Notes: a model not told the origin generated them from the letters alone. Shown: positions 3,809 to 56,672, counted from the stretch's first letter. The stretch is 64,000 nucleotides of DNA from a virus (IMGVR_UViG_3300006226_001702:11064-75063); one strand, 5' to 3'. Made by a program: numbers and translations.

Positions 3809-3838
3809 ATATATAAGATAAGGGAGATTATCGTTCAA
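3809..3838 (-). promoter_or_regulatory. sigma70-like promoter TTGAAC-N17-TATATA (copy 1)
   Basis: Minus-strand TTGAACgataatctcccttatctTATATATT; exact 17-nt spacing; shares CTTATATA and TTGAAC with four other copies. Confidence 0.5.
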
Positions 3839-3843
3839 AATAT

Positions 3844-5925
3844 CTAAGTTCTAAATTTATTCACTTCTTTAGTGAGATTGTTGATTATATCCTTATTTTT
3901 GACACTAATATCATTGAGATGATTGATAGCCTCATTTATTTGAGCTGTTCCAGAAGCCATTTCATTCATTGACTCAGTTATCTCTTGTGACATTTTCTCT
4001 AAGTTTTCACTCTCTTTGATTACTTCAACAGCACCCTCATTCATTTCATTTGAGCCTCTCATAACTTCTCCAGTGACTCCTTGAATATGGGCTGTTGATT
4101 GTAACAATTGCTTGCTTCCAACTTCTTGTTCTTCCATTGAACATTTGATATTCTCTTCCTGTTCAGCAACAGTTTGCACGCTAGAATCTATCGTTTCAAA
4201 TTTGATTAAGACATCATCGGCTGATGAGTTTATTTCGTCAATGCTTTTCTTAATGTTCTTCAATACACTACTAATCGTTTTTGATTGTCCAGAAGATTCT
4301 TCAGCTAATTTACGAATCTCATTTGCAACTACAGCGAACCCCTTACCAGCATCTCCGGCATGAGCAGCTTCAATGGCGGCATTCATTGAGAGTAAGTTAG
4401 TTTGTGAAGCAATGTCTGCCATAACTTTATTGATATCCATTAAGCTTTCTGACTCTTTTAGAATCTCTTTAGCATCTTCAACAACCTTCTGTAAGCCTGT
4501 CTTACCAATTTCAGCTGCTTCTTTTAAGTCAGTTACATTCTTTGAGTTGTTCACTAATGATGTTGTAACTGAGCGAATGTTTGCAACCATCTGTTCGATA
4601 GCAGATGAAGATTGAGCAATATCATCACTTTGACTTTCAACATGAGCATTGAGCTTTTTGATGTTAGTCACGAGTTGGTCCATTGTGGCATGTGTTTGAG
4701 AAACTGATGCCGTTTGATTTATGACTCTGTCTTTTATGCTTGTGATATTTGCTGTTATTTCATTAACAGCTGCTGCACTTTCAGTCATATTAGAAGATAA
4801 ATCACTACCAACATTTGATAGTATCTCAGCTTCTTTCTTAATGATGTTAACTAAATTACGAATCTTACCTAAAGTTTTGTTGAAATAAACAGCTAAATCA
4901 GTAATTTCATCTTTGCCCTTTTCTTCAATTGATTTAGTTAAGTCGCCTTCACCTTCTGATATATCTTTTAATGTGTTGCTAACTTTTGTTAGCGGTCTAT
5001 TTATTGATAAACTGATTAGGATTGATAAGCCAACACCAACTATGAAACAGATTAAGCCAATAGTCAACACTAAAAACAATGCTGCATTTAATTCAGCATC
5101 AATTTCTGACTCTTCCATTGTTATGAATAATAACCAAGGTCTATCTGGAACTTCTGTGAATGCTACTTTATAATTTATGTTGTTCCAAACATAATAACCA
5201 AATCCTGATTCTTCTTGAATAGCCTTTTGCATCATTTCTGATATGCTTACAAAACTTTGATTAGTTCTAGCTTCTTCAAATATGTTAACTTGATTTAACA
5301 CATAATCATTATTTCTTGGATAAGCAATAAAAGTCCCTCTTGTATCAATCATGTAAGCATAACCACTTGGAAAACGGGTACCAATACCGCTAACTAAAAA
5401 TGAAATGTCTTCTCTAGCAACTAAAAGAGCTATGAGTTCAGTTCTCTCTTCATCAGCAAACACTGGAGCAACTAACATAACTACTGCATTGTTAGTTATT
5501 CGACTAATCAATACATTTGATATGAGCGGTTGCTTTGTTCTGTATGCTTCAATAATATAATCTCTATCACCTAAGTTACTAACAGCATCATCTGAAAGAT
5601 ATCTATAGGTTCCGTCTGGCCAAACCATACCGAGTTCTAAATAGCCAATTCTATCTCTATCGTGAATTAAACTGTGTTTAATCACATCATCCCATTCCAA
5701 AGTTCTCACTGATGGCCTTGACGCAATTTCAACTAAGATATTGAGTCGTCCATAGAGTTTTTCATTTATTAGTAAAGAATAAACATCTGTTCTAGTTTTT
5801 AGTTCTTCGAAATGGTATGATTGTATGCTTTTTCTTTTCGCATTTTGAACTGGGATAACTATGCTTAACGTAGTTAAGAAGATAATTATCCCAAACAAAA
5901 TGGGTATCTTAAACTTTAATTTCAT
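3844..5925 (-). CDS. methyl-accepting chemotaxis protein (Cache-like sensor, HAMP, MCP signalling domain)
   Basis: N-terminal TM helix, ~250-aa periplasmic region, second TM ([24 protein letters not shown]), HAMP segment, and canonical signalling hairpin [34 protein letters not shown]. Confidence 0.85.
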
Positions 5926-12567: not shown

Positions 12568-12944
12568 AAACATTTGAACAAATATACCAATTAAGAGAAG
12601 ACAAAAAACCATTCGTTGGTGATTGTAGAGATTTAGAAGTGTCAAACAATTTACCATGGGAAGATACAACTGAATGTGCTAATGACTTAGGTTATTGGGC
12701 TAGAATGGATGAATATGATGGCAGTCCAGAAGATAGTAATTACGAAAAAATAACAAAAGAAGAATTTTGGGAAGCTTGCGAAAGACATAGAAACCCACAA
12801 TTTGATTGGGAAAGAAAAGCTAAAGATTACACAGATGACTGGGATGAATACATTGACGGAGATAAAATCTATCTCAAACGATATGACGGAAACATTTATC
12901 TAATTTATGATGAAAACGAAGACGTTCATTATTTTTGGTGGTAG
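12564..12944 (+). CDS. hypothetical protein (N-terminal MKTFEQIY motif)
   Basis: 126-aa ORF, ATGA-coupled to upstream gene. Confidence 0.5.
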   Translation: MKTFEQIYQLREDKKPFVGDCRDLEVSNNLPWEDTTECANDLGYWARMDEYDGSPEDSNYEKITKEEFWEACERHRNPQFDWERKAKDYTDDWDEYIDGDKIYLKRYDGNIYLIYDENEDVHYFWW

Positions 12945-12946
12945 TA

Positions 12947-14329
12947 ATGAAGTTATTTGAAGAAATCTACACTGGATATCGTGGAATGTCAGGTGGTAGT
13001 GATGAAGGCAAAAACTTCTGGGAGCCAGGAGAATTTGATAAGCTCACTTCAAAAAAATCAGTGGGAAAATGGTACTCATCAGACCCAGAAGTTGCTGAGT
13101 GGTACGGTGATGGGAAAGTTATTAAGAACACATTAGAATTTGACGACCCAATGATTGTTGATGCTGAAGGTTCTGACTATCACAACATACAAATTGATGG
13201 AAAAAGATACAATTCAGATAAACTATCTTTAATGGCTCATGAAGATGGCCATGATGGATTAGTTATAGAAAATGTTAAGGACCCAAAAATAGTTGCTGAT
13301 ACTTATGTTGCATTAAAACCTAACACAATTAAAGAGTCAAAATTATTTGAACAGATATATAGAAGCAGCAAATTGTACTATCACATCTCTCCAAATAAGT
13401 TTGACAAATTTGAAAGACGAAACTCTTTTAGAAAAGGAGATGGTGCTGAAGAGTTAGGTGGGACATTTTTAACTCCACAGCTTTATATGATTAATGCTTA
13501 TTTCGCTAATTATCTTTCAACTAAACATAAGAGAAAAGAATATTATCTATACTACTGCAAATTGAAAAAAGACTTAAACATCTTTAATCCATCATCTAAG
13601 AAAGATAGAACATTATTGATTGATAAAATTAGAGAAAATCCAAATCAGTTTTTCTTGAATTATTCTATTAAACAACCACGAGCTGTTCTTCCAGATTTGA
13701 AAAGAGAGTTAGCCTCAATGTTTCGCTCACATAATTGGTCTCAAATAGAAAATCCAGAACTTACTAAAATGATTAAGAGCCTTGGATTTGATGGCTATGT
13801 TTCTCAAGAAAATGAAGTGGGAAATATCATGGTGTTTGACCCAACTAATATTGAAATAGTTAGAAGCAAATCAATGAAAGCAGAAGACTTAAAAGATAGT
13901 TGGTCAGAAAAAGCTTTTTCTAAAGATGAGTACGAACAAATAAATGATAGATACAAATGGAAAGACGAAAAAGAAAATAGATGGGACTCAGTTGATGATA
14001 ATGAGTTCAACGACTTAAAATATACGACATCAGATATTTATGAGATAACTACAGACACTGACTTAGAACCATTCGATCTACTTTCTATGGTCGACAATGA
14101 TGGTAAAATAATCACTAACAAAATGAGAGACGTTTTAGACCCAGCGATTCATTATGCTAAAAAGTTTTTCTTTGACGGAAAAGAATTTGATAGCGTTAAC
14201 GAATTAGAAAAACATCTTGTCAAAACTTTTGGAAAAAGTGATAAGGAGTGGGGCGAAGTTTTCTCTGGAATGCTTGGCGAAGATGATGAAGACGAGCATG
14301 ACGCTGGTGATGGTGACTTAATCTTTTAA
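12947..14329 (+). CDS. hypothetical protein (two copies of LFE(E/Q)IY motif)
   Basis: Track ORF 12935..14329; start placed at MKLFEEIY to match the N-terminal motif pattern seen in paralogous contexts; internal second copy SKLFEQIYRSS. Confidence 0.5.
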   Translation: MKLFEEIYTGYRGMSGGSDEGKNFWEPGEFDKLTSKKSVGKWYSSDPEVAEWYGDGKVIKNTLEFDDPMIVDAEGSDYHNIQIDGKRYNSDKLSLMAHEDGHDGLVIENVKDPKIVADTYVALKPNTIKESKLFEQIYRSSKLYYHISPNKFDKFERRNSFRKGDGAEELGGTFLTPQLYMINAYFANYLSTKHKRKEYYLYYCKLKKDLNIFNPSSKKDRTLLIDKIRENPNQFFLNYSIKQPRAVLPDLKRELASMFRSHNWSQIENPELTKMIKSLGFDGYVSQENEVGNIMVFDPTNIEIVRSKSMKAEDLKDSWSEKAFSKDEYEQINDRYKWKDEKENRWDSVDDNEFNDLKYTTSDIYEITTDTDLEPFDLLSMVDNDGKIITNKMRDVLDPAIHYAKKFFFDGKEFDSVNELEKHLVKTFGKSDKEWGEVFSGMLGEDDEDEHDAGDGDLIF

Positions 14330-14332
14330 ACC

Positions 14333-14363
14333 AAAAAAAGCCCCCATTGCGGGGGCAAGTAGC
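14333..14363. terminator. bidirectional rho-independent terminator
   Basis: aaaaaaaGCCCCCATTGCGGGGGCaag; GC hairpin with A-run on plus strand, so a U-run for the convergent minus-strand gene. Confidence 0.7.
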
Positions 14364-14378
14364 AGAGTGAATTATAAA

Positions 14379-14765
14379 CTAAAAAATTTCAAGATCGGCA
14401 GGCTGGTCAGCAGGAACATCGGCTTCAACTGGAGCGGCCTCTACGACCTCGGCAGCAGCTGCGCGCTTGCGAGCAACGCGCTCGTTCACCTTGATTGCCA
14501 TCGCAGCCTTGAGCTTCGCTTCGGCTTCTGACTTGGCGGCGCGTGCCTCAGTAAGGGCAGCAGCTTTAGTCTCGCGTTTAGCGACCCGTTCGGCCTTGCG
14601 AGTTTCAACAGCGGCAGTGTACGCAGCACGTGCAGCGGGACGGAAGTCCTTCACAAGACTCTTAATGAGCTCGTCGGCTTCAACTGAAATGCCAGGGTTC
14701 TTAACCATTTCATCCTGCAGTGCGGCAAATGCCTTCGTCATTCGTTCTCTAAGTTCTTTTCTCAT
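14379..14765 (-). CDS. Ala/Lys-rich histone-H1-like / nucleoid-associated-like protein
   Basis: 128 aa dominated by KAA/AKA/AEA repeats (KAAALTEARAAKSEAEAKLKAAMAIK); gene is conspicuously GC-rich relative to flanks. Confidence 0.45.
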   Translation of the reverse strand: MRKELRERMTKAFAALQDEMVKNPGISVEADELIKSLVKDFRPAARAAYTAAVETRKAERVAKRETKAAALTEARAAKSEAEAKLKAAMAIKVNERVARKRAAAAEVVEAAPVEADVPADQPADLEIF

Positions 14766-14810
14766 CTCTTATCTCCTCAGATAGTTTTTCCAACATACGC
14801 TGGATTTAAT

Positions 14811-14841
14811 AATATATAAGAACATTCAAACGAATGTTCAA
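14811..14841 (-). promoter_or_regulatory. sigma70-like promoter TTGAAC-N17-TATATA (copy 2) with palindromic operator-like spacer
   Basis: Minus-strand TTGAACattcgtttgaatgttctTATATATT; spacer contains perfect inverted repeat GAACATTC-aaac-GAATGTTC (14820..14839). Confidence 0.5.
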
Positions 14842-14848
14842 AATCTCC

Positions 14849-15016
14849 TTAACAATCTCCACAGCCATTACATAAGTAAGGCCAGCGGTTTCCGTTGATT
14901 TCGCAGCACTGGACAGCATCATTGTTGAAACAATCGTCGCATACATATTTGAAGCTGCTATCACAATCCATATAGATATTGTCAGCTATCTCCTGTCCAC
15001 AATTTGCACAACGCAT
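14849..15016 (-). CDS. small Cys-rich (zinc-ribbon-like) protein
   Basis: 55-aa ORF below track cutoff: MRCANCGQEIADNIYMDCDSSFKYVCDDCFNNDAVQCCEINGNRWPYLCNGCGDC; GGAGA RBS. Confidence 0.35.
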   Translation of the reverse strand: MRCANCGQEIADNIYMDCDSSFKYVCDDCFNNDAVQCCEINGNRWPYLCNGCGDC

Positions 15017-15026
15017 GAGCATTCTC

Positions 15027-15176
15027 CTACCTAAAATTATTTCCGCTGGGCATGTTTTTGTTCAGCCAGCGACATAAGTCTTCAATTTGGGCTTTTGAAT
15101 CAGAGACGTTACCCCACTCTTTAGTTTTTCTGTGGTACGCTCTCCAAAGTCCTTGCCATCTCTTACATATCCACAT
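15027..15176 (-). CDS. small hypothetical protein
   Basis: Track ORF 15027..15227 trimmed to MWICKRW, which has a GGAGG RBS; upstream part is occupied by promoter copy 3. Confidence 0.35.
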   Translation of the reverse strand: MWICKRWQGLWRAYHRKTKEWGNVSDSKAQIEDLCRWLNKNMPSGNNFR

Positions 15177-15196
15177 ATAACATCCTCCGTTATAAT

Positions 15197-15227
15197 AATA
15201 TATAAGAAGAATTAGAATAGTGTTCAA
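15197..15227 (-). promoter_or_regulatory. sigma70-like promoter TTGAAC-N17-TATATA (copy 3)
   Basis: Minus-strand TTGAACactattctaattcttctTATATATT. Confidence 0.5.
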
Positions 15228-16111: not shown

Positions 16112-16675
16112 ATGAATCTAAATAGAATCCGACATTCTACAGTTCAATCACGATTAGCAATGGTGCAAGACAGAGCTAGAAGAAAGTTAATCGATAACTC
16201 ACTCTTTTGGATAAGCAACCCAACTGACTGCATTAGAATGAGAATGAGAGAGAACTTTGAGGGAGATGCTATTTCCTGGATAGTTGAAAAGGCAGATGTC
16301 ATTTCAGCAGTTTTTCCACCTCTCACTGATGTTCCTTATAGAAAAGTCAATGTTGACCCAGTTACTAGAGCATGGAGTTTGACCTCATTAGTATCTGCTT
16401 TTGAAGATGATGCTCAAGAGAAATTCTATACGTTACAGATTCCATTTGAGTTTGATATAAATGCTAAAGATTTGTTGTTCAGAATTATGTTAGATGAAGC
16501 TCAAAAGTTTCCAATTATTATACCAATAATGTGTCAAGAATTATTAGGAACTTTTGGCGGTATGATGATAATAATGAATAAAGTAAAATGCACTATACCT
16601 ACAGATACTATACCACAGGAAATAGTTGACACTATTCATCAAATGGCGTTGCGTAGACAGATTATTAGATATTAG
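16112..16675 (+). CDS. hypothetical protein
   Basis: 187-aa ORF, start in ACTAACTATTATG context. Confidence 0.5.
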   Translation: MNLNRIRHSTVQSRLAMVQDRARRKLIDNSLFWISNPTDCIRMRMRENFEGDAISWIVEKADVISAVFPPLTDVPYRKVNVDPVTRAWSLTSLVSAFEDDAQEKFYTLQIPFEFDINAKDLLFRIMLDEAQKFPIIIPIMCQELLGTFGGMMIIMNKVKCTIPTDTIPQEIVDTIHQMALRRQIIRY

Positions 16676-17061
16676 TCAAACAGAATTTTTTCTTCTAAAA
16701 GAGCTAATCTTTTCTTTTCTAAATATCTATTATTCTTTAATTCAGTAAGCTCTTTTCTTAATACTTTAATTTGATATTTTAATTCAGCATTCTGTTCAGA
16801 TATTAAATCAACCTTCTTTTTAGCTTGATCTCTATTTAATCGTTTAATTGCTAAAACAAAGTCATTAAAAAATTGTTTTGAGTGTTTATATTTATATAGA
16901 ACTATATCTAAATCATACACAATTTTATCATATTCTTCTCTAAAACGTTCGTATGATTTAGTTCTATAAACTAGTGTGCTAAAAAAGTCACAGAAAATAG
17001 ATATTGGCGGCTTATATGCATTTTCAATAGCTTGTTCTCTGACTTGTTTCATGCTAATCAT
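16672..17061 (-). CDS. hypothetical coiled-coil protein
   Basis: 129-aa ORF, heptad-like C-terminal region. Confidence 0.4.
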   Translation of the reverse strand: MISMKQVREQAIENAYKPPISIFCDFFSTLVYRTKSYERFREEYDKIVYDLDIVLYKYKHSKQFFNDFVLAIKRLNRDQAKKKVDLISEQNAELKYQIKVLRKELTELKNNRYLEKKRLALLEEKILFD

Positions 17062-17392: not shown

Positions 17393-17756
17393 CTTTTACT
17401 TCCTCCAAATTTCCATCTTTATTTATGATATATGTTTTAGCAGTAACTTGACAATTGTTGGTAGTAGTCACCCATGGCACTTTTTCTTCAGTGTCTCTTG
17501 GATTACCATAGATATCAACTGGGTTGCCTTCTTTATCTATAAAGTTTCCCGCTCTAACATTCCAAACATAATGTTGTCCATCTTTAAAGCCTAACTCAAA
17601 AAGTTCACGAGCTTTTGCAACAAAGTCTGGACCTGGTTCTGAATTCCAACTATCTTTACCTTCTAAATAAAGCTCTTTAATTTTTTTGTTAATTACATTT
17701 TCTGGGTCTGTTGACCAAATTGTCTCACTCAAATAATTCTCCATCCAATGAAGCAT
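17385..17756 (-). CDS. hypothetical protein
   Basis: 123-aa ORF. Confidence 0.4.
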   Translation of the reverse strand: MLHWMENYLSETIWSTDPENVINKKIKELYLEGKDSWNSEPGPDFVAKARELFELGFKDGQHYVWNVRAGNFIDKEGNPVDIYGNPRDTEEKVPWVTTTNNCQVTAKTYIINKDGNLEEVKDD

Positions 17757-18528
17757 ATAAGCTTATTGTTTTCTTTAATTTGTCTATTTCTTCTTGTTGT
17801 TTAGATATTAACTCGTCTCTCTCATCAGTTATAGTTAAGCCTTTTTTGATTATCTCATTAAAGTCACAATTTACGTTGCATTCCCATAGACATTTTCCAC
17901 ATCCACCTTGATCAGGTTCAAATGGGTCTTTTTTCAAGTTAACTTTCCAATGAGTATGTCTTCTATGTACATCGTCAAACTTCTCTTTTCCCATTGGACA
18001 AGAACATCTTTTATGTTCTAAATCATCTATCTTAATTAAGCCATGGAATCTAATTCTCACATCAAACATTTTGAAAGTTATCCAATGTTTAATATCTTTG
18101 AAAGTTTGAGATGCTTTTATATTATCTTTTAATCTGTTTAATGGGAAAGGCAATTTACTAATTACATCTTTTCTGTCTAATGATTTGTTAATTCTTGCAG
18201 CAAACTCATCACAGTCTTCTTGTGTTAAATCATACAAACCTTTTAACCAAAAATGTAATTTATTATCATATAAAGAAGGATCTCCATGATTTGATTCAAT
18301 AACCCATTTAGTGCTTTTTGGAATGTACATCATCCAATAAAACTTATTATATTGAACTATGTTATTTGCTGTAATAAAAACCCAAGGTGTATGTTTATGA
18401 CTGCCACTTCCAAAGTGTCCACTTGATGTATAAATACCAGGATTTCTGTTTATAGCCCGAACTAATTCTCTCATTTCTGGGTCTATCTTTTCGTAATCAA
18501 TTTTCTTCTTTTTTCTTTCAAGTGTCAT
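17725..18528 (-). CDS. hypothetical protein with Cys/His-rich segment
   Basis: 267 aa; HKRCSCPMGKEKFDDVHRRHTHWK and CGKCLWECNVNC clusters. Confidence 0.45.
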   Translation of the reverse strand: MTLERKKKKIDYEKIDPEMRELVRAINRNPGIYTSSGHFGSGSHKHTPWVFITANNIVQYNKFYWMMYIPKSTKWVIESNHGDPSLYDNKLHFWLKGLYDLTQEDCDEFAARINKSLDRKDVISKLPFPLNRLKDNIKASQTFKDIKHWITFKMFDVRIRFHGLIKIDDLEHKRCSCPMGKEKFDDVHRRHTHWKVNLKKDPFEPDQGGCGKCLWECNVNCDFNEIIKKGLTITDERDELISKQQEEIDKLKKTISLYASLDGELFE

Positions 18529-18840: not shown

Positions 18841-19725
18841 TCATTTTGGTATCAAGTTCCTATATTCTAAATTTGTCCCATGTTTTTTATTCCATTTTTC
18901 TAATTCAGTAGTTATATCATATTGCTCAATGTTTATTTCAACTCCATGATCATAATAATGTTCTGGATTATCCAAATCAGCTTCAACAACATCAATGTAC
19001 ATTCTTAAATCAAAATATGGTTCCCTATGTTCCAATGAAAGTTGATTTAACAGAGCATATATAACATCTTTTTCTGGTTTATAAACATAAAGAGACAAAC
19101 TATCATGAACATAATTATAGATTCTACTTTGGAATTCCCATTCAACTAATAAGTTATTCATAGCAGTAACATCTGGCATCGCTTGAAATACTTCAGCCGT
19201 TTGAATAGTTGTGTTACTTGCTTCATTCTTCATTCCAGAAAACATTTTGGAATAAAGTTTGACATCTACACCAACTAGATTATCTCTTGCATTTCTTTTT
19301 AGATAACGAAACTCTGGAAAGTGACGAACTGGCCCACTCCAAGTTCGAGCATAACCATGTTTCATCGCAAATTTTTGTTCTCTAGTTACACGCTCTAATA
19401 ATCCAGGATAAGTTTGAAAGAATAAATCTCTTAATTTATTTCCAACAATCATATACTTTAATTCAGCAATACTTTTTCCTTTTGTGTTTCCATAAATTGC
19501 ATTATCCAAAGCAGGTTTCAACTTAAATGTGTCAATAGTTAAATCACAATCATGTTCCGAGAACCCAGCCTGTTTCATTTGACGTCCAAGAGTTGGACCT
19601 GTGCAAGCAAATATTGTTGATAAGTTAACTGTCTTTCCATCAAATCTCATTTTCTTAAATGGAGGAAAACCTTTTAAGACTAGAAAATCTTGTAATGTTA
19701 TTTCTCGTTTCGTTATTTTATACAT
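18841..19725 (-). CDS. DNA polymerase I family, C-terminal fragment (motif C region)
   Basis: YNYVHDSLSLYV resembles PolA motif C (VHDE); overlaps the upstream pol ORF by ATGTATAA. Confidence 0.55.
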   Translation of the reverse strand: MYKITKREITLQDFLVLKGFPPFKKMRFDGKTVNLSTIFACTGPTLGRQMKQAGFSEHDCDLTIDTFKLKPALDNAIYGNTKGKSIAELKYMIVGNKLRDLFFQTYPGLLERVTREQKFAMKHGYARTWSGPVRHFPEFRYLKRNARDNLVGVDVKLYSKMFSGMKNEASNTTIQTAEVFQAMPDVTAMNNLLVEWEFQSRIYNYVHDSLSLYVYKPEKDVIYALLNQLSLEHREPYFDLRMYIDVVEADLDNPEHYYDHGVEINIEQYDITTELEKWNKKHGTNLEYRNLIPK

Positions 19726-21802
19726 AATCTAAAAATATGTCCTCTTCAGTAAATTCTTTTCCCTTGATAACAAGTTCTTTTTCATCATCAACTAATCCTA
19801 ATCTCTTAATCTTTATTTTCTGCTCTTCACCAAAGATAATCTTTTTTCCATTATCATCTTCAATTTCAATAACTTGCATATGAATTGGTGCACAGAATAC
19901 TCCATGAGTTGTCATTGAGTGAGCATCTTGACAACCATCGGGTCCATAAATATCATAAGCAATTTTATCAACACCATTTGGGTTTATTCCACAATCACAA
20001 AAAGCTAAGATTAACTGAAGTGACCTAAAGTCGGCATTGACTAATAGCCAATCAGATTTAGATTCTCCGACTAAATCATCTTCAATTACATTTGGTGGAA
20101 CTGTGAATAATCTTTTTATGTATGGAGCAATTTCACCACGAGATGGAATCTGTTGGAAGTTTGGATCATTCATTGCATGTCTAAATGATTCAGTACCGAA
20201 TGTGTTACAGTTTGGATGAATTCTCCAAGTTCCATCTGGATGTTCGAATAACCATTTTTTCCAACCTTCAATAAATGTTCCTAATGCTACATTATATGAA
20301 CGAAGTTTCTTTAACTCTTTTATTCCAGGTTTATTTAATAATTCATATTCAGTTAAAACGTCATCAGATGTTTTATAGCCTCCATCTTTTGCTTCGGCTA
20401 TTTTTTCCCAACCCATATCCTTAAATAATTGTCCAAGTTTTTTAGTTGATTCAAACTCAAAAGTTTCTTGAACACCCCATTCAACTGCTAATTTCTTTTT
20501 TAAGTCAACTATTTTTTCTTTAATTGCTTTTTCAGAGATATCAAATTGGTCTTTATTTACATAAACACCTTTATATTCAACATCAGTTACAACATTAGCA
20601 TTTGGAATCATTACTTCTTTATAGAATTTTTTAATTGTCCAAGTTGGGTCTTTTTCATTTGGATATTTTTTATCTAATTTTTCTACATGTTTATCTAAAG
20701 CCTTTTGTAATCTCCAAGTTACTATTGGGTCAAGGCCTGCATATTTATGTAAAATATCTTTTGGAATTTGTAGATAATTTTCGACTTTTAATCTCTTTTT
20801 TGCTAAATCTAATTCATGTTCATAACCAGTAAACTTTCCACAATAAAATATTGCACCAGATTTTAAGCTCTTCGAACGATTTGAATTAAGAGCATGAGAT
20901 AATAAAACTGTGTCATCAGTTGGTAACCAGCCAGTTACACCATTTCTCCAAATAAACTTTGTATCAAATTTTGCATTTGCTAAAGTCAATCTTTTTGCTG
21001 ACATTAAAACTTTTTTTAATAATCTTTTATCAACATTTTCCCAATCAAAAACATACCCAGTTTCACCATCATTAGATAAACTTAAAACACCAAGTCTATC
21101 TTTTAAGAATGATAATCCACTCGTTTCAGTATCTGCTGCTAATAAAACAGAGTTCTCTAAAAGTTTTAGATATCTTGATGAATCTTGTTTATCCTCAGCA
21201 TAAATTATTTTATAATCTCTCATGTCAAGATTTTTAGTTGACATATCATCTTTTTGAATACGAGCTAATTTGTCATAAAAAAATCTAGTGAGAAAATTAG
21301 TTGGGTCATTACTTAAATCAATTGGGTATAAATCTCTAATTGGAGCAACTGGATAAACCCATCTGTCTGGGCCATTAATGAATTCTTTTCCACACCAATA
21401 TCTTGGTTCATTAAAAACATCATCTAAAAAATCATAATAATTTACATCACCAGATTTATTTAAGACACGAAGTGCTGGGCCGAATGCAATTACACACTCA
21501 CATTCAGTTCCATCAAATGTTAGATATTGTCGCCAATTACTTTCTAAAGATAAGAGTTCTTCTGTTGAATCATTTTTTGGATCTTTTACTGATATTACAG
21601 AAACGATGTTATATGATTTGATGCCATATCTATCAATATCTTTACAAAGAATGTCAAGATAAACTTTATGTAGAATATTATCAACCAAGAATAAAAAATA
21701 TTTATGTCCTGGTTGATAATTTTCTTTTAATAAAGCATCAAATTTCTCTAAGTTTTGTTTTGGTCTTTCGCTTGCACGAACATTACCGAATTGAAATGCC
21801 AT
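19718..21802 (-). CDS. DNA polymerase I family, N-terminal fragment (3'-5' exonuclease + motif A)
   Basis: Exo I motif LLAADTETSGL; PolA motif A analogue NADFRSLQL (cf. DYSQIELR / T7 DASGLELR). Confidence 0.7.
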   Translation of the reverse strand: MAFQFGNVRASERPKQNLEKFDALLKENYQPGHKYFLFLVDNILHKVYLDILCKDIDRYGIKSYNIVSVISVKDPKNDSTEELLSLESNWRQYLTFDGTECECVIAFGPALRVLNKSGDVNYYDFLDDVFNEPRYWCGKEFINGPDRWVYPVAPIRDLYPIDLSNDPTNFLTRFFYDKLARIQKDDMSTKNLDMRDYKIIYAEDKQDSSRYLKLLENSVLLAADTETSGLSFLKDRLGVLSLSNDGETGYVFDWENVDKRLLKKVLMSAKRLTLANAKFDTKFIWRNGVTGWLPTDDTVLLSHALNSNRSKSLKSGAIFYCGKFTGYEHELDLAKKRLKVENYLQIPKDILHKYAGLDPIVTWRLQKALDKHVEKLDKKYPNEKDPTWTIKKFYKEVMIPNANVVTDVEYKGVYVNKDQFDISEKAIKEKIVDLKKKLAVEWGVQETFEFESTKKLGQLFKDMGWEKIAEAKDGGYKTSDDVLTEYELLNKPGIKELKKLRSYNVALGTFIEGWKKWLFEHPDGTWRIHPNCNTFGTESFRHAMNDPNFQQIPSRGEIAPYIKRLFTVPPNVIEDDLVGESKSDWLLVNADFRSLQLILAFCDCGINPNGVDKIAYDIYGPDGCQDAHSMTTHGVFCAPIHMQVIEIEDDNGKKIIFGEEQKIKIKRLGLVDDEKELVIKGKEFTEEDIFLDYV

Positions 21803-21811
21803 AATATGATA

Positions 21812-22492
21812 TTAACTGTCTTCTTCAATCTCAGTTATAGTCAGTATCTCTTTTGCACTTTTTTTCAATGGTAATATGATTCTTAGAATTCCCCTATGTA
21901 ATTCAGTTTTCATCTTTAATTTGTCATACATATCAAAATCAATAAAGAATTCTGCCTTAATTTCGTTTTTGATTCCATAACAAAGAAATTCAAAATCATC
22001 ACCAATTAAGTCATCTTCATCATCAATTTTTGCTGATAATAATAACTTATTATCTTCAGTACTTAATTTGATTTCTTCTTTTGAAAATCCCGCACAACAA
22101 ATCTCATATATCAAATTATCTTTATAATCTTTTTTGATATTGTAAGGAATTTTTGTATCAACTATTTCCTTATCAACTTTGTTTGGAAGATTTTTGATTA
22201 ACTCTCGATAATTCTTTAAGTCATCTAATTCAAGTGGCTTGTACTCATAATGACCTTTTTGCCAGCCACCTGTGTAATCATTGATATTTGGTTCAATATG
22301 CTGTGGTGTGTATGGAGCAATCCAAACTGGTTTTCCGACTTGGTAATCACCTGTTGTAAAACTTGGGTTATAGACATATTCATTTACTGCACTGTCTCCA
22401 GTGTTTGAATGATAAGTAACTTTTACAGATGAATTGACTTGTGTGTTGTGAGAAGTCCCGACTAATGCTTGAAATTTTTCTTTAGCATTCAT
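21812..22492 (-). CDS. Hsp20/alpha-crystallin family small heat-shock protein
   Basis: C-terminal AGFSKEEIKLSTEDNKLLLSAK...FxxxFxLP..IxxxxxxAxxxNGILRIILPLKK pattern; start moved to MNAKEKF, which has an AAGGAGG RBS. Confidence 0.6.
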   Translation of the reverse strand: MNAKEKFQALVGTSHNTQVNSSVKVTYHSNTGDSAVNEYVYNPSFTTGDYQVGKPVWIAPYTPQHIEPNINDYTGGWQKGHYEYKPLELDDLKNYRELIKNLPNKVDKEIVDTKIPYNIKKDYKDNLIYEICCAGFSKEEIKLSTEDNKLLLSAKIDDEDDLIGDDFEFLCYGIKNEIKAEFFIDFDMYDKLKMKTELHRGILRIILPLKKSAKEILTITEIEEDS

Positions 22493-22713
22493 AACGCAAT
22501 GCCTCCTTATATGTTTGAGTCCAGTTACGCAACTCATAATATTTAGTTAAAAAATGGGACTCCAGGTCTATATTCCGCCTCCTGAAGTTATCCCCGGACT
22601 GTTTTCCGCATCCGTTTTTAAATTCCTTACTAATTGAGCTCCCCCAAACTTTCAGGATAATTTTAGATTAACTTAAAAAAGAATTGGCATATTCTCATGA
22701 CAGATTGCTTGGA

Positions 22714-23400
22714 CTATTCATATATGTGAATTCCACCTCTATTATATAAATAAGTTCTTGATTTACAACCAATTTCTTTTAACGCTAATGTTACATTATT
22801 ATATAAAACACCATCAAATAAAAATTTTGATACCTTTTTTCTTGGTCTTAAAATTCCTTTTTGTGAACTAACATTAGTTCTTCCTCTTTTATAATTTTCA
22901 CCAGGACAATCATTTGACCATGTATCAATTTCTCCATTAGTCCACCAATGATAATTTTTATCTTTTAATGTTTCTTTTCTTTTTTTAATAGATTCATCTG
23001 TAATAATTCTATTTTTCATATAAGCCGATGCACCTGGATTAGGTTTTCCTTTATTAGGAGGTTTTCTTCCTTTATTTAATTCACTCATATATTCACTATG
23101 TTTTTCTCTTAATTCAGCATATTCATCATGACTTAATATAGTATTATTTTGTTTATCATAAATAAGTCTATTATAAGCACACCACATTCCCTTTCCATAA
23201 ATATAAGCTAATAATTTATGAGCATCAACATGCTCCTTTGCTGTTAATAAAACTATATTACTTTTTCTTTTTTCCCATAATGGAAATAAAGCCTTCGGTA
23301 AAATATGATGTTTTTCATAATAGATATTATCATTCTTTTTTCTATTTTCTAATAAAGCCTTTTTAATTATTTTTATATAATCTTGTTTAATACTTTTCAT
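22714..23400 (-). CDS. HNH homing endonuclease
   Basis: YYEKHHILPKALFP...NIVLLTAKEHVDAH (HH..P...N...H HNH core); very AT-rich gene next to thyX. Confidence 0.65.
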   Translation of the reverse strand: MKSIKQDYIKIIKKALLENRKKNDNIYYEKHHILPKALFPLWEKRKSNIVLLTAKEHVDAHKLLAYIYGKGMWCAYNRLIYDKQNNTILSHDEYAELREKHSEYMSELNKGRKPPNKGKPNPGASAYMKNRIITDESIKKRKETLKDKNYHWWTNGEIDTWSNDCPGENYKRGRTNVSSQKGILRPRKKVSKFLFDGVLYNNVTLALKEIGCKSRTYLYNRGGIHIYE

Positions 23401-24661: not shown

Positions 24662-25036
24662 TTAGCAATCTCTTGTACCAGTTATAATCTCAATTGCAGG
24701 TGGATCATAACCAGTTATTTCCATTACCTTTTGAAGTGCTTCTGAACAACCAATGTCTTGTAGATCCGTATGGGTGAACTCTAAAAAGTCATCTCCTTCA
24801 GTAATGCATTCCCCCACGACATATAGATTATTTTCATAATCTTCCCAAACCCATATCTCATCATGAATCTTTTCTAAGAGTTCATAAAAATCAAAATCTT
24901 CATCATCAAATTCAATATTATTGTCTTTCGCATATTTCTTGAATTTGTCTAAATCATCACCTTTTCCAATTCTAAATCCTGCAACTACAAATGATGAAGT
25001 TGAACTATTGCTGACAAATCCATGTCTGATTTTCAT
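24662..25036 (-). CDS. MKIRxGFVSNSSSSSF-family protein (member 1, acidic)
   Basis: N-terminus MKIRHGFVSNSSTSSFVVAG, then divergent acidic body. Confidence 0.6.
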   Translation of the reverse strand: MKIRHGFVSNSSTSSFVVAGFRIGKGDDLDKFKKYAKDNNIEFDDEDFDFYELLEKIHDEIWVWEDYENNLYVVGECITEGDDFLEFTHTDLQDIGCSEALQKVMEITGYDPPAIEIITGTRDC

Positions 25037-30401: not shown

Positions 30402-30761
30402 TTAAGAGGGATAAGTTTCCTCATGATAATCAAATTTGTCTTCGGATATATTAACTTTAGTTTTGGCGTTTATTTCATCCCTAATTTGCTTCTTAAAGTC
30501 ACCCATAGTTTGGTCATCAGCACATTCTGATAGTGACTCACCAAAATAATAGCCGTCCCACATTTCACTTGGGCCATAATAAGACAAACCAATGGCTTCT
30601 ACTTTTTCCCAAATTTCATCTTCATCATAATCTTCATCGTCTGGGTCAGAAACACAATCAATGCCAAAGTGTTTGATAACTTCTTCTTCTTCGAGATAAA
30701 CACCATAAATTAAGAATGAAGAGCTGCTACTATTACTTACGAATCCATTTCTAATCTTCAT
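30402..30761 (-). CDS. MKIRxGFVSNSSSSSF-family protein (member 2)
   Basis: MKIRNGFVSNSSSSSFLIYG then acidic divergent body. Confidence 0.6.
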   Translation of the reverse strand: MKIRNGFVSNSSSSSFLIYGVYLEEEEVIKHFGIDCVSDPDDEDYDEDEIWEKVEAIGLSYYGPSEMWDGYYFGESLSECADDQTMGDFKKQIRDEINAKTKVNISEDKFDYHEETYPS

Positions 30762-30912: not shown

Positions 30913-31419
30913 TTAGTTGTACTCCACTCTAATATGTGAGTCTGGGCTATAAAGCCAGTTTCTCAAAGTTTCAGCACTCTCAAAGATTTCCTTACCAAGA
31001 TTTTCTGCTGAATTATGACCGAAGAAACTATCAACATAAACACACATTGGGTCCATATAAGCATATTGTGTGCTTCCGTTATCCCATCTAAAGTTGATCT
31101 TGACATCATCAAATTCTTCAAAATCTTCCAGTAAAGTTTCTTCTAACAATGAAGTGTAATGAAAGTTTGACATATCAGAACCCTCAGGTCCTTCCTTCAT
31201 GTAACACAACATTGCAGCGGCATTCAATCTTTCTTCAAATGAGTTGTACTTTTCTTGAGTGCTATCAAATTCATAATTTCCGCCAAAAGTTTGGGGAATC
31301 ATTAGCGTATCATTTCTCATATAAGCACGATGTATCACTGGCTGTTTCCATTCTTCTTTTCCAATTATGAGAAAAGAGCTTGATGATGAATTACTGACAA
31401 ATCCATTTCTAATTTTCAT
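30913..31419 (-). CDS. MKIRxGFVSNSSSSSF-family protein (member 3)
   Basis: MKIRNGFVSNSSSSSFLIIG; body shares PxTFGG..F....Y..F..RLN segment with member at 49750..50478. Confidence 0.6.
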   Translation of the reverse strand: MKIRNGFVSNSSSSSFLIIGKEEWKQPVIHRAYMRNDTLMIPQTFGGNYEFDSTQEKYNSFEERLNAAAMLCYMKEGPEGSDMSNFHYTSLLEETLLEDFEEFDDVKINFRWDNGSTQYAYMDPMCVYVDSFFGHNSAENLGKEIFESAETLRNWLYSPDSHIRVEYN

Positions 31420-31484: not shown

Positions 31485-32486
31485 TTATCTATTACCAGAG
31501 TTTGGTACGTTAACTATACCACCCGCTGCTGTAAGCGGCAGATATTCAGTAACACGACGGCCATCCCAACGCTCTGCTTCAGTTTGCGCAATAGTTAAAT
31601 TACGCAACTGGATTTCAACATTCAAGTTCTGTGCAATAAGTCTGTTGGCTTCGTTACGAGCCTGAGCTGCAACTCTAACTGCTTCTGCATCAAGTTCTGC
31701 TGCTGCAAGTCTACCACGAGCTTCCGCTTCAACTGCTTGTGCCTGAGCTTCAGCACGGATTCTAGCCTGTTGTGCTTCCTGTTCAATCATTCTCAATTCT
31801 GCTTCTGCTCTCTGAGCTGACTGCTGCATTTCAACAGTTCGCTGTATCATCTGGTCATATCCTTCTGACCAATCCCAGTTGTTCAACTGCAACTGAGTTA
31901 TTTCAACAGGTATGCGAGCATTAATTAGCTGCCTCTGTGCTTGTTCTCTTGCCTCTGCTGATATTTTTTCCTGCTCTGGGACAATGTTTGCAATATCATA
32001 ACGGCCAACTACTTGGCGAATGGCTGAGTTTATTTCACGAGTTACTTGGTCAGTCAATCTTGATATACTACTAAAGTTTCTAGCAATATCTAAGATTCTC
32101 GTTTCATCATAACGCCATGCATAAAATCCGCCAATACCAATCGTCTGTCTGTCTCTTGAAAGAGCACCATCATCACCAACTGGTATGCGAACATTGACAG
32201 TTGTCGGTGTCAAGTCGTAAGTTTCAATCGTCTGAGCAATTGGAACTCTAAACTTCAGACCTGGTTCAAGCACCACTTCCTGTACTTCACCAAACGTTTT
32301 AAGAACACCGCGCTCAGTTGCGCCAATAGTTCTCAATGGCCATGCAACAATTAGGAAGATAATTGCAGCCACAATTCCAACAGTCAACTTGACAATATTG
32401 CCAACGTTAACTTCCGTCTCCGTGTACTCACCAGACCTACCTTGGCGAGTTACTTCTTTTGTGAAAAAGCTTTTCTTTTCACTCAT
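31485..32486 (-). CDS. SPFH/band-7 (prohibitin/HflKC-like) membrane protein
   Basis: TM helix then ERGVLKTFGEVQEVVLEPGLKFRVPIAQTIETYDL, then Ala/Gln/Glu-rich coiled coil. Confidence 0.65.
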   Translation of the reverse strand: MSEKKSFFTKEVTRQGRSGEYTETEVNVGNIVKLTVGIVAAIIFLIVAWPLRTIGATERGVLKTFGEVQEVVLEPGLKFRVPIAQTIETYDLTPTTVNVRIPVGDDGALSRDRQTIGIGGFYAWRYDETRILDIARNFSSISRLTDQVTREINSAIRQVVGRYDIANIVPEQEKISAEAREQAQRQLINARIPVEITQLQLNNWDWSEGYDQMIQRTVEMQQSAQRAEAELRMIEQEAQQARIRAEAQAQAVEAEARGRLAAAELDAEAVRVAAQARNEANRLIAQNLNVEIQLRNLTIAQTEAERWDGRRVTEYLPLTAAGGIVNVPNSGNR

Positions 32487-35053: not shown

Positions 35054-35083
35054 TTATATAAGATCGTTTAGAGAGCTGTTCAA
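35054..35083 (-). promoter_or_regulatory. sigma70-like promoter TTGAAC-N17-TATATA (copy 4)
   Basis: Minus-strand TTGAACagctctctaaacgatctTATATAAC. Confidence 0.5.
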
Positions 35084-35813: not shown

Positions 35814-38800
35814 ATGAACTTTTTAAATGAGCTCGTTTCACTATCTAGAGATGAAATGGTCGATGAATATAATAAGACTAATAGAGATCCCATAGAAAAT
35901 GTTAAATTTGATAAAAGGGCAGCAAGTAGTTTTTCAGCCTCAAGAAAAGCTACTAGACATAAAATAACGGATAAACTCTTTCCAGATGGTTTTAATGAGT
36001 TTGATTTGCATAGTGCAGGAATTGCTATTCAAAGATTGATGAACACTGGGGAATTTGACCCAGATTACGATATAAAAGATGATATTGAAAAACTAACTGG
36101 CGCAGATAGAGACTTAATTAAAGCAGTTTTAGTCAAATCACAATATCATATTGATAAAGAAAACGTTAAGGGAAGTGTTGAACGAAATTATCCACATCTT
36201 GACATATCACAATTTGATGATATTTACGAAGTCTTTACTGATATAATTGGCCCAAACCATGGTGATACATCTTTATATGGAATTGAAGCCGAAATTGAAT
36301 TGTTGACTTGCATTGCTTTAAGAAAGATGGGATATCATACATCAAATGTTTATGACAACTTTTATTCAGAAGCTAGTGAGGCTCAAATTAAGGAGACTTT
36401 AATTAAAGTGGCTAAAGCATATTATCAAAGCAAACAGCATAAATTAGAAGAAAGTTTCAAACTTAGAATTCAGAACTTGAGGGAAGGTAAAACTTCCACA
36501 ATGCATTTAGAAGATTCAATAATTCGTGGTCCAGCGACTATGAATAAAATGATTGAATTTTTTAATTATCTCTATGGATTATTAGAAGGAACTTATACTG
36601 GAGATAATCCACCAATTTCACAAAAGATTGATGGTGGTCCAGTTATCTTTATGTGGTCGTCATTCCCAGGTCTTCCAGGCCCAGGATGTGCGGGCAAAGG
36701 ACTCCTTAATAAGACTCCAGTTCATTACACAACTCATGAACAAATAGATGCTGATGACAAACCACAAGGTTATAAAGACAAATTACATTACGTTTTGAAA
36801 TTAGCACAAGCTGTTAAAATCCCAGCAAATCAAGTTTGGATGGGCGACATGCTCTTCTCAAAAGGTGACGCCAAAACTTATGAGCAAGACGGTGAGAAAT
36901 TCGTTTATGTTAAGCCTGTAACTATTGCGTATGCAGCTCCATTTGATTCAGATATTGGTAAGAAGTTTTTGAATTGTGAAGTTGGAGCTGTTTTTCATAC
37001 GAGATTTAGAGATAACTTAACTAACAAGACTAATGATATTTCAATTTCAGAATTGGGAGATATTCCAGATTGGGCATTCGTTAAAGATGCTCAAATAAAT
37101 AACTTAAGTGGTAAGGTATCATTCAATAAGCAAGAATCCGCTTTCGTAAAACGTGAGATTGATAAACTTAAAAAGCTTGTAAACGAGCTAAACAATAATG
37201 AAGCATATCATGAGTTAACTAAAAATCAGAAGTTTATTGACTCATACGTTACAACATTACAGAATAATAAGATTGATAGACAAAGTAAAATTGACCCAAA
37301 TGAATTCGTAAATGAATTAGTGAGTTGGATTGGCACTAAAATGGATAATAATAGATCCAAATTGGATAGCCTCAAAACAGAAGCAGGCCGAATTAAAAAG
37401 GCAGCCTCATTAGATACGACTCAAAAAGAGTTAAATTATCTCGTAACTAACAATAAAGATGTAATTCAAAAAATAGCAACTTGTCTCAAACTTGCAACTG
37501 ACATTAAAGAGTACATGGTTGAAAAGATAAACGAAGCAGATGAATGGATATCTCAAATAGAAACTAAAGACGGTTTTTCTAAAACTGGTGGGGAAGGTTT
37601 TATCGCATCAGATGTTGATGGTGATTTCGTTAAGCTTGTAGACAGAGCAGCATTCACTTATTTTGCTCGCTCACCTGACATCATCAAAGGCGGGGCACAT
37701 TCAGCTTCTCGTGAAAACACTGAGAAGAAAACTGCGGTAGTAAACTTTGGCAGACTTAATCCTGTTTCAATTGGCCACAGAAAAATGGCAGAAGCAATTA
37801 GAGCTAAAGCAGATGAACTTGGTGGTGAAGCATTCATCTATCTTTCTCATTCATATGATGGTGTTGACTCTAAGAAGTTCAAGAAAGGAACAACTAAGAA
37901 TCCGCTCAAGTATGAAGACAAGATAACTTTCGTACAGGATGCTATTGGTGATATTGTAACAGTTGTAAATAGCAAAGCAGACCAAGCATTTGCTGTTTAT
38001 GGTGAACTCTATCGAAAAGGATTTACTGACCTCGTTATAATTGCTGGTGAAGATAGAATTGAAGTCTTTGAAAGAGATGCTCAGAACCACAATGGAAAGT
38101 ATGATGCTGAACCAATGAGATGTTTTGATTTTGATAGCATTAAAGCGGTGAATGCTGGTGTTAGAGATGAAGATAGTGATGATGAAGCTGAGCAGGCAAG
38201 TGCATCATTGTTACGTAGAGCTGTTAGTGATAATGATTTTGAAACTTTTGAGAAGTTTGTTGGTGCAAAGTCATATGCTCAAGAAATGTTTGATCTTCTT
38301 AAGTATGAGATGGGTTTATCTGAAAAATTAAAAGAAAATGAAGAACTAACAATAGATGAACTCATAAATAGATTAGACAATGAAGATAATAATATTGAAA
38401 TAGAAATCGATGTGAATCCTGATCCAAATGAAGAAACAAATTTTAATATAATAGAAGAACCTGAAAATAAAAATGAAGTAAATGATTCTACTGAAAATAG
38501 AGAAAGTTCTCCAGAGGAAATTAGTAGTGAAATAAATTCAGCAATTGATTCCTATATGAATGAATCAATAAATATTTTTAATAAAATATTTTATAAAAGT
38601 TTAAAAGAAGAGACAAAAAGAGGAAAAACTTATACAGTAAAAGGTAAAGAAAATATAAAGAAAGTTTTATTTAATATAAAGAAAAGACACAAAGATTTAA
38701 CTTTTTATAATGCAAAGCATCTTGGTGGCGGTAAGTGGGAAATAAAAACATCATATGCTAAGAGTAGATCAAACTTAAGTAATCGTGAGATTGAATGGAA

Positions 38801-42579: not shown

Positions 42580-42972
42580 GTGTGCATGCCTGGAAGAAGA
42601 AGTAGTGATGACCCAAAATGGAAGCTGACAAAAGCTGCAGTTGATAAGAGGGATAAAAGAAGGTGTCAATTTGATAGATGTTTGTTGGCAAAAGAAGCCC
42701 ACTCTTTAAGAAATGGCGGGCCAACGACATTAGACAGAGCCCATATTTTTGCAGCATCCACTTGGCCTGAACAGATTTACAACACTAAGAACATAGTCAC
42801 ATTGAAACGATTCCTTCACAGAAGATTAGATGATTATCAGTCCCCATTAGATGGAACGCCAATATCTCACAATGAAAGAATGTGGTGGTTCTATCGGATA
42901 TATACAAAAAGTCACTTACATTATGATGAAAATGAGGACTATGAGCTTAAACTTAAAACCGAAATCTTCTAA
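42580..42972 (+). CDS. possible HNH-like nuclease
   Basis: RRCQFDRC...EAHSL...LDRAHIF...N...LHRRLDD; loose CxxC..H..N..H pattern. Confidence 0.3.
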   Translation: MCMPGRRSSDDPKWKLTKAAVDKRDKRRCQFDRCLLAKEAHSLRNGGPTTLDRAHIFAASTWPEQIYNTKNIVTLKRFLHRRLDDYQSPLDGTPISHNERMWWFYRIYTKSHLHYDENEDYELKLKTEIF

Positions 42973-50848: not shown

Positions 50849-51157
50849 CTAATCAAATAATTCTCCATTTTCAGAATCAACATATTCACTAAATTGGTCA
50901 CCCTTAAAATGAATAGTCATTCTATCTTTTTGACGCTGAAACATTTCAATCATCTCTTCAAAAGATGATGTCACATTTTGTACTCTAATTTGCCAATAGT
51001 AGTCTGGTTTGTATCTCACTTGAATGTCAGCATTCTTTTTGTCGGCAAAAGCATTTGCATCCTCTCTAGTCAAGAACACATGAAAATGCTCAGGCTTAAC
51101 GCCAAATCCTGCTTCACATTCAAAATCAATTGCAACGACATACATAATCAATTCCAA
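50849..51157 (-). CDS. hypothetical protein
   Basis: 102-aa ORF. Confidence 0.4.
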   Translation of the reverse strand: MELIMYVVAIDFECEAGFGVKPEHFHVFLTREDANAFADKKNADIQVRYKPDYYWQIRVQNVTSSFEEMIEMFQRQKDRMTIHFKGDQFSEYVDSENGELFD

Positions 51158-56642: not shown

Positions 56643-56672
56643 TAATATAAGAAGAGCTCAAATATCGTTCAA
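56643..56672 (-). promoter_or_regulatory. sigma70-like promoter TTGAAC-N17-TATATT (copy 5)
   Basis: Minus-strand TTGAACgatatttgagctcttctTATATTAT. Confidence 0.5.

Follow-up and report, generated by a model that had tools for sequence, protein, structure and literature searches.

In the 64,000-nucleotide stretch of viral DNA IMGVR_UViG_3300006226_001702:11064-75063 (hereafter the window), a minus-strand gene located at 14379..14765, which encodes a protein of 128 amino acids, forms a sharp island of high GC content in an AT-rich genome. An earlier note on this DNA had recognized the island and attributed it to horizontal acquisition, from a high-GC source, of a histone H1-like nucleoid protein (AlgP or Hc1) or possibly a phasin. 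The observation is real at its core and the explanation by such an import is unsupported. The evidence presented here indicated that this is very probably a conserved gene with a codon bias linked to its promoter, and not a recent import. Of greater interest is that a promoter class and a codon preference are coupled across the clade of uncultured huge phages that carries the gene.

The GC content of the gene was 0.550 against 0.349 for the window, the highest value among 76 open reading frames (ORFs; z = 4.3), and the maximum among 400-bp bins of the window was found at 14401-14800 (0.55), the runner-up bin reaching 0.463. In this respect, the contrast with an AT-rich background described previously was fully borne out. 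The minus-strand frame, running from an ATG start to a TAG stop at 14379-14381, was taken as the coding one because the GC content at its first codon position (GC1, 0.71) exceeded that at the third (GC3, 0.49) and the second (GC2, 0.46), which were nearly equal, because a GAGGAG sequence lies 7 nucleotides upstream of the ATG, and because the frame is kept in every orthologue. In the orthologues, the equivalent place is occupied by AAGGAG or by a related site that contains GGAG, and the predicted protein was 100% identical to P0001, encoded by the ENA contig ERZ27257348:k141_1331966. The locus is one monocistronic unit comprising a promoter, a leader, a strong ribosome-binding site, the 128-codon gene and an intrinsic terminator. 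The earlier attribution of a separate promoter and terminator to this gene was thereby supported.

Two causes account for the GC-richness of this gene. First, the Ala-rich composition of the protein (26% Ala), together with its Arg, Glu, Val and Pro, raises GC1 and GC2. When the protein was recoded with the window-average codon usage, a GC content of 0.44 was obtained, and the amino-acid composition thus covers about half of the excess. Second, a selected synonymous preference is held in common by the genes placed under one phage-specific sigma70-type promoter class. For GC3, 0.48 was observed where 0.22 was expected (z about 8), CGC, GCC and AAG being over-used. In six orthologues, AAG accounted for 81% of the Lys codons against 21% in the background, and CAG for 20 of 20 Gln codons against 20%. 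Conversely, TTA (Leu) fell to 4% from a background of 53%, AGA (Arg) to 23% from 60%, ATA (Ile) to 7% from 37%, and CCA (Pro) to 22% from 62%. The family preference thus favoured AAG, CAG, CGY, CTY and GCC, and avoided TTA, AGA, ATA, CAA and CCA. Since GAA (Glu; 74% against 83%) and GAT (Asp; 75% against 75%) were essentially unshifted, this is a codon-specific shift and not a general GC shift.

The age of this preference could be judged from the orthologues themselves. Residues identical between two orthologues were encoded by the same codon in 43% of cases, against 41% expected from independent draws on the family codon usage. Therefore, the synonymous sites are saturated, and a composition imported on a single occasion would have decayed. 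As the codon preference persists over saturated synonymous sites, it reflects selection on expression and not a foreign origin. Three phage tRNA genes are present in the window, Gly-UCC, Gln-UUG and Pro-UGG, which read the A-ending codons GGA, CAA and CCA; the orthologue family strongly avoided CAA and CCA, and used GGA at 27% against 38% in the background.

The second line of evidence came from the promoter. A sequence of the sigma70 type was predicted upstream of the gene (TTGAAC, a 17-nucleotide spacer and TATATA), and the same promoter was found directly upstream of the orthologues in all five cases. The motif TTGAAC-N14-TCTTATATA occurred in the window in four exact copies against 0.01 expected, in addition to one copy with a single mismatch, all of them on the minus strand (sites 3838, 14841, 15227, 35083 and 56672). 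Conservation reached AGAT(T/A)T upstream and TTAT-TATAAC downstream, giving the extended motif AGAT(T/A)T-TTGAAC-N14-TCTTATAT(A/T)TTAT-TATAAC, and the genes that follow it make up a codon-usage class of their own (GC3 0.41-0.51 against 0.24). The predicted class is phage-specific, and its members are small proteins and one DNA enzyme, an ATP-dependent DNA ligase. A codon index trained exclusively on five foreign orthologues was applied to all 84 ORFs of the window. The 128-codon gene ranked first, and the top seven ORFs were all placed behind the five class promoters, which would happen by chance with a probability of about 7e-8 (about 11 class ORFs among the 84, the class being defined post hoc). 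Moreover, seven other genes of the promoter class had a GC3 of 0.41 against 0.24 in the remaining 59 ORFs, and their shifts in AAG, TTA, AGA and CCA had the direction seen in the orthologue family (Fisher p between 4e-3 and 9e-9). Since the codon preference is common to genes found behind the same promoter, the GC island is the extreme member of an expression class.

These observations were extended by the distribution of the family. A HMMER search over 1.84 billion representative proteins revealed eight relatives only, with 24-53% identity to the query, and a profile search added one further relative. All relatives were encoded by phage contigs, which, according to encoding-contig look-ups and to scans of IMG/VR and JGI metagenomes, included contigs of 108, 261 and 329 kb. 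At the syntenic position, orthologues were found in five other phage contigs (12-329 kb), with 41-56% amino-acid identity, within a constant gene order composed of ThyX, DNA polymerase A in two ORFs, small ORFs, an oppositely oriented 187-aa gene, a 147-aa gene, a GNAT acetyltransferase, the gene under study and then convergent genes. In these five loci, the orthologue had a GC content of 0.49-0.53 and a GC3 of 0.38-0.52 against 0.26-0.36 in the flanks. When four of the loci were compared with their own background and their own amino acids, the orthologue GC3 was about 9-13 standard deviations too high.

In contrast, no donor emerged. Searches of 185,579 species genomes of bacteria and archaea, of 50,697 GenBank phage records (by tblastn) and, beyond the phage clade, of the 1.84 billion proteins yielded no homologue. 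The neighbourhood of the gene retrieved nothing by blastn against phages, and metagenome and IMG/VR scans for a donor returned the same phage clade alone, whose DNA polymerase is only about 25% identical to that of any cultured phage. As far as these searches reach, the family is an orphan confined to this phage clade. Regarding the marks by which a genomic island is usually recognized, presence was not patchy, the gene being at its locus in all five of the other contigs recovered, and amelioration was not seen, the synonymous sites being saturated and GC3 yet staying at 0.38-0.52. The composition was the highest of the window in both GC and GC3, but the same preference was displayed by the seven other class genes. 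The proposal of horizontal acquisition from a high-GC source was thus contradicted by synteny, saturation, a shared codon preference and the lack of any homologue outside the clade in the collections searched.

The preference would most likely reflect translation by the host tRNA pool, early and at a high level, before or without the phage tRNAs for A-ending codons. Early expression of the class by the host RNA polymerase is suggested by both sigma70-type hexamers and by the products of the class, which are small proteins plus one DNA enzyme. In a published analysis of 14 phages, half were reported to differ in codon usage between their early and late genes (PMC5683454). The present case is similar in that a discrete set of genes uses synonymous codons different from those of the rest, and in that the avoided codons include those of the phage's own tRNAs. 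However, it differs in that the class is marked by a sharply conserved promoter motif, with a large GC3 contrast of 0.41-0.49 against 0.24, and in that the preference has been kept over saturated divergence in uncultured huge phages.

With respect to the protein, an AlphaFold2 run on an 8-sequence alignment predicted a helix at residues 3-22, a turn at N23-P24-G25 and a helix at 24-109, with a predicted local distance difference test score (pLDDT) above 90, followed by residues 110-128, which appeared disordered (pLDDT below 50). Residues 3-60 displayed a clear hydrophobic periodicity of 3.5-3.8 residues, and in the model the N-terminal helical hairpin is a likely oligomerisation core. Residues 51-109 lacked a hydrophobic periodicity of 3.5-3.6 residues, with only about 7.5 hydrophobic residues among the 51 of segment 55-105, and no hydrophobic face was found in segment 55-109 of the long helix. 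Instead, one face of this helix carries a conserved stripe formed by R56, K57, R60, K63, R64, K67, R75, K78, K84, K92, R96, K100 and R101, and the acidic residues of the segment lie on the opposite face.

The charge was unevenly distributed along the chain. The body (residues 1-105) had a net charge of +10 and an isoelectric point (pI) of 10.2, and the bodies of the family ranged from +9 to +16 (pI 10.0-10.75), the lowest value, +9, being that of P0008. The C-terminal 23 residues (106-128) had a net charge of -7, and the family tails were between -5 and -8 in seven of the eight members and -2 in the short-tailed P0008. The protein ends in ...VPADQPADLEIF-COOH, and a C-terminal (E/D)IF-COOH was observed in five of the eight members, P0007 and P0008 being without the IF end.

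This architecture did not fit the families to which the protein had been assigned. The KAA/AKA-type repeats ascribed to it were not confirmed, since KAA occurred twice, AAK once, and AKA, KPAA and KKAA never, and the DNA contained no tandem repeat. Its composition was Ala 26%, Glu 12.5%, Lys 10% and Arg 9% (Lys plus Arg 20%). No match was obtained for it in Pfam, NCBIfam or PHROGs (Pfam and NCBIfam at E <= 1-10), nor for any of the eight family members in Pfam and PHROGs, nor in sequence searches of the PDB with the single protein and with the profile. Fold and sequence libraries gave no specific match for it and only generic coiled-coil structural matches. The sole model related to polyhydroxyalkanoate (PHA) was PHA_gran_rgn, which hit one family member at a non-significant E of 0.17. 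Thus, the homology check proposed in the earlier note returned neither an H1-like, a phasin nor any other family match; with no homology, no Lys/Ala repeats and only 10% Lys, an H1-like identity was not supported, and with no Phasin or Phasin_2 match and no hydrophobic helix face the phasin identity was not supported either. The protein resembles AlgP, chlamydial Hc1 and the phasins in being small, Ala-rich and partly basic, but it lacks their Lys/Ala tandem repeats, their homology and an amphipathic lipid-coating face, and has an acidic tail.

Other parallels concern the design of the protein. The bacterial SSB carries a tail ending in ...DDDIPF-COOH, and the acidic tails of T7 gp2.5 and gp4 end in Phe. 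The 128-residue protein has, similarly, a basic body, a disordered acidic tail and a conserved hydrophobic-Phe end, and its gene adjoins replication genes. However, its body is helical, with no oligonucleotide/oligosaccharide-binding fold and no sequence homology to these proteins, and its tip is (E/D)IF instead of [IL]PF. Caulobacter GapR and T4 DsbA are homologous proteins for which a DNA-encircling model was proposed (PMC7824862). They are likewise small, basic, all-helical and encoded by a bacterium or a phage, and their long helices line DNA, but the present protein failed to show homology to DUF2312/GapR or to the solved GapR structures.

A nucleic-acid-binding role is plausible given the basic helical body. 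An abundant architectural or coating protein would use its basic stripe to bind nucleic acid, most likely DNA, and its acidic tail would fold back on the stripe and/or dock a partner, as in SSB, T7 gp2.5 or HMGB1. Such a binding mechanism, built on the predicted structure, is tentatively put forward and is somewhat less probable than its negation, and the proposal as a whole, which joins promoter-class codon selection to an abundant nucleic-acid-binding protein with a docking tail, is regarded as evenly poised between being right and wrong. Several points weigh against it. The early timing is read solely from the sigma70-like look of the promoter and from the kinds of genes that it drives (e.g., DNA ligase), and a phage factor recognizing the conserved extended motif could equally be involved. 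Two genome scans gave no host lead, and the adaptation of the codons to a host is accordingly putative. Owing to the acidic tail, the whole protein is only mildly basic, with a net charge of +3 and a pI of 9.2. No homology ties it to nucleic-acid binding, and an acidic protein would be an equally possible ligand of the basic stripe. Finally, the AlphaFold2 model rests on 8 sequences only, with a predicted template modelling score (pTM) of 0.42.

The main rival to the nucleic-acid model is a protein-protein takeover factor. Many small early phage proteins work as adaptors or inhibitors of host machines. The protein could accordingly be an early adaptor or inhibitor that hijacks one of them (RNA polymerase, ribosome, replisome, clamp or the SSB-interaction network), in which docking would be the task of the (E/D)IF peptide and the long helix would act either as a coiled-coil spacer or as a surface for binding; both the role and this assignment of parts are considered rather unlikely. 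The conservation of the tail and of its terminal Phe agrees with this possibility, as does the position of the gene at the edge of the replication module. Moreover, similar acidic-[LI]-F ends occur in several other proteins of this phage (9 where 1.0 was expected; post hoc P of about 1e-6), and the LFD end of a 129-aa protein is kept in its orthologues. Nevertheless, the most conserved part of the protein is the basic stripe of the helix and not the tail, P0007 and P0008 lack the IF end, and no partner was found, neither a sliding clamp nor an SSB being recognized among the window ORFs scanned.

A bolder combination, which seems improbable, is that of a new, purely helical phage DNA-coating protein whose tail would be one of several docking peptides (...DLIF, ...EIF, ...ELFD/E, ...ILFD) shared by at least seven proteins, all of them plugging into one hub. 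With the same low expectation, the candidates for the hub include a sliding clamp, the phage polymerase and the host SSB-interaction partners. If true, huge phages would rely on an early host-codon-adapted class to set up a takeover network addressed by peptides.

The GC-richness could also serve the nucleotide level, as a structured RNA, an antisense gene, or an escape from AT-directed silencing or nucleases, an idea of which little is to be expected. It is in line with a GC-richness that is conserved while the sequence is not, and with a long antisense ORF (105 aa) present in the window. However, the mRNA folded no better than its shuffles (z = 0.25), no Rfam match was found for the gene, the three tRNAs being the only Rfam matches in the window, and the antisense frame and length varied between orthologues. 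In addition, strongly shifted AAG and CAG beside unshifted GAA and GAT fit selection at the tRNA level better than a general demand for G+C, although an escape from silencing is still conceivable.

A structural role, as a capsid scaffolding, internal-core or coating protein of the kind represented by other small, charged, all-helical proteins of phages, is very doubtful: the all-helical and highly charged nature of the protein, its high-expression features and the exclusively generic coiled-coil matches would suit it, but the gene lies in a DNA-metabolism region far from any recognizable head gene, shares its promoter class with a DNA ligase and small regulatory-looking proteins, and encodes no heptad hydrophobic core in residues 55-109. 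The recent transfer of an H1-like (AlgP or Hc1) nucleoid protein or a phasin from a high-GC organism is hardly credible, for although the GC and GC3 far above the genome background, the Ala-rich composition and the basic body recall it, the gene keeps a syntenic position across six contigs whose divergence has reached 41-56% amino-acid identity, maintains its GC3 over saturated sites, shares its codon preference with other genes behind a promoter that is the phage's own, has no homologue in any of the collections searched, and encodes a family in which no member matched the Pfam models of Hc1, histones or phasins and in which neither the repeats nor the hydrophobic helix face exist.

The transcription signals of the unit, whose coordinates are given in Table 1, were also compared with those of the orthologues. 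The terminator hairpin (GCCCCC-N5-GGGGGC, 14340-14356) folds at -12.4 kcal/mol, and each of the five orthologues likewise has a GC-rich hairpin after its stop codon (-13 to -19 kcal/mol), with a T-run in all but the L012 copy. A strong bidirectional terminator had been proposed here. The strength of the hairpin was confirmed and its bidirectionality was not: AAGTAGCAG comes after the hairpin on the plus strand, seven consecutive T follow it on the minus strand only, and the scan reported the minus-strand site alone. Because the U-run exists only on that strand, this hairpin is, by the usual criteria, the terminator of the 128-codon gene and not a bidirectional one. In the orthologues of L002, L005 and L006, the terminator hairpin has A-rich and T-rich tracts on both sides.

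The promoter had likewise been described as carrying an operator-like palindrome. Both the promoter and the perfect palindrome exist, but the operator reading was rejected since the palindrome is not conserved, having no counterpart in any orthologous promoter nor in the other copies of the promoter class. It scores as terminator-like, with 8 pairs and the U-rich tail TTATATATTA, folds at -7.9 kcal/mol, and is placed at the exact end of a two-gene cassette found in this window only, so it is most likely the terminator of the upstream cassette, overlapping the next promoter. The cassette genes, at 15027-15176 and 14849-15022, encode a 49-aa Trp/Cys-rich ORF and a 57-aa Cys-rich (zinc-ribbon-like) ORF, respectively. 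In the relatives, which lack the cassette, the promoter comes directly after the GNAT gene.

The small hairpin listed in Table 1, close to where the mRNA is predicted to start, possibly plays a role in mRNA stability. In the orthologous mRNAs of L002, L005, L010 and L012, a conserved TGTAAGGGAA...(A/T)CCCAA was observed at the predicted 5' end (the first ~30 nucleotides 3' of the -10). The AAGGGAA...CCC element of the orthologues occupies the place of the window hairpin (14789-14804), and may represent either a structure that stabilises the 5' end or a start region that has been conserved.

Table 1. Coordinates of the 128-codon gene, its protein regions and signals, the adjoining cassette and the other copies of the promoter class in the window.
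Feature	Position	Strand	Basis or remark
Intrinsic terminator: hairpin GCCCCCGCAAUGGGGGC (14356 to 14340), then UUUUUUU (14339 to 14333)	14333..14356	-	Terminator scan
Coding sequence, 128 aa	14379..14765	-	Orthologues align without frame disruption
Residues 110-128: predicted disordered acidic tail with Pro, ending ...PADLEIF-COOH	14382..14438	-	pLDDT; charge
Residues 55-109: most conserved part, predicted long polar Ala-rich helix	14439..14603	-	Alignment; AlphaFold2
Residues 1-54: predicted amphipathic helix 3-22, turn, start of long helix	14604..14765	-	AlphaFold2; hydrophobic periodicity
Shine-Dalgarno GAGGAG, 7 nucleotides 5' of ATG	14773..14778	-	Sequence reading
Small hairpin UCCAGC-GUAU-GUUGGA near predicted mRNA 5' end	14789..14804	-	In minimum free energy fold
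Predicted promoter AGATT-TTGAAC-N14-TCTTATATATTAT	14809..14848	-	-35 at 14841-14836, 17-nucleotide spacer, -10 TATATA at 14818-14813
Perfect palindrome GAACATTC-GTTT-GAATGTTC, 8-bp arms	14820..14839	-	Overlaps -35 hexamer and spacer
Two-gene cassette between GNAT gene and the 128-codon gene	14849-15227	-	This genome only; own promoter copy at 15227
Promoter-class copy	3810..3838	-	First downstream gene has GC3 0.51
Promoter-class copy	15199..15227	-	Drives the two small Cys/Trp-rich genes inserted between GNAT gene and the 128-codon gene
Promoter-class copy	35055..35083	-	Upstream of 153-aa gene (GC 0.44) and ATP-dependent DNA ligase
Promoter-class copy, one mismatch	56644..56672	-	Upstream of 135-aa gene (GC3 0.40)

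Annotation of about 45 neighbouring ORFs revealed enzymes of DNA metabolism (a split PolA, ThyX, ligase, exonuclease, kinase, methyltransferase and homing endonuclease), and no SSB, clamp or head gene that might hint at a partner was found among them. The family A DNA polymerase is encoded by two ORFs, 18841-19725 and 19718-21802, on the minus strand. It is split in all relatives, some of which have small ORFs between the polymerase halves, and a homing/HNH endonuclease gene lies near the polymerase at 22714-23400 (minus strand). The convergent neighbour of the GC-rich gene, at 12935-14329 on the plus strand, encodes a 464-aa protein with an N-terminal ART-PolyVal ADP-ribosyltransferase domain and a strongly acidic tail, ...EDDEDEHDAGDGDLIF. 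Its orthologues in L012, L010 and L002 have 41-59% identity and variable C-termini.

The acidic-[LI]-F C-termini counted above belong to nine ORFs, two of them probably false. In the window, they were found at 12935-14329 (+), 14379-14765 (-), 16672-17061 (-), 17725-18528 (-), 42580-42972 (+), 50849-51157 (-) and 56677-56895 (-), and in the relatives at L002 2712-3887 and L006 5985-6221. The ends comprised ...DGDLIF, ...DLEIF, ...KILFD, ...GELFE, ...TEIF, ...GELFD and ...SELFD, and may represent a shared C-terminal docking motif.

Other features of these genomes were observed. At least seven paralogous ORFs with a near-identical N-terminus, MKIR(N/S/A)GFVSNSS, are encoded on the minus strand (24662-25036, 30402-30761, 30913-31419, 49750-50478, 51569-51955, 51952-52359 and 52365-52652). 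None of the four tested matched Pfam, and one weakly matched a PHROG of unknown function over its first 37 residues. A methyl-accepting chemotaxis protein with dCache, HAMP and MCPsignal domains is encoded at 3844-5925 (-), and no close bacterial relative of this phage chemoreceptor was found in the 185,579 species genomes, which gave no host lead. The relatives also carry sensory genes of bacterial type, such as hybrid histidine kinases and periplasmic solute-binding proteins (L002 3880-6006, L005 8671-10770, L002 1602-2636, L006 11820-12878 and L012 4256-5044). Finally, the unusual cargo of the phage includes an SPFH/Band-7 protein, a radical-SAM/SPASM protein, an Hsp20-like protein and a 1531-aa protein with an internal cytidyltransferase-like region (ORFs 31485-32486 (-), 53421-54647 (-), 21812-22537 (-) and 35814-40409 (+)).

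These results altogether caution against taking every sharp GC island of an AT-rich genome for foreign DNA, as the present one corresponds to an expression class tied to one promoter motif. In uncultured huge phages such as these, in which almost every gene is unannotated, the promoter motif combined with the codon preference offers a sequence-only route to genes that are likely early or highly expressed. The extreme member of the class is an orphan protein of simple design, composed of a basic helix and an acidic, Phe-ended tail, and for biochemical study of DNA handling or host takeover by these phages it makes a good first candidate.

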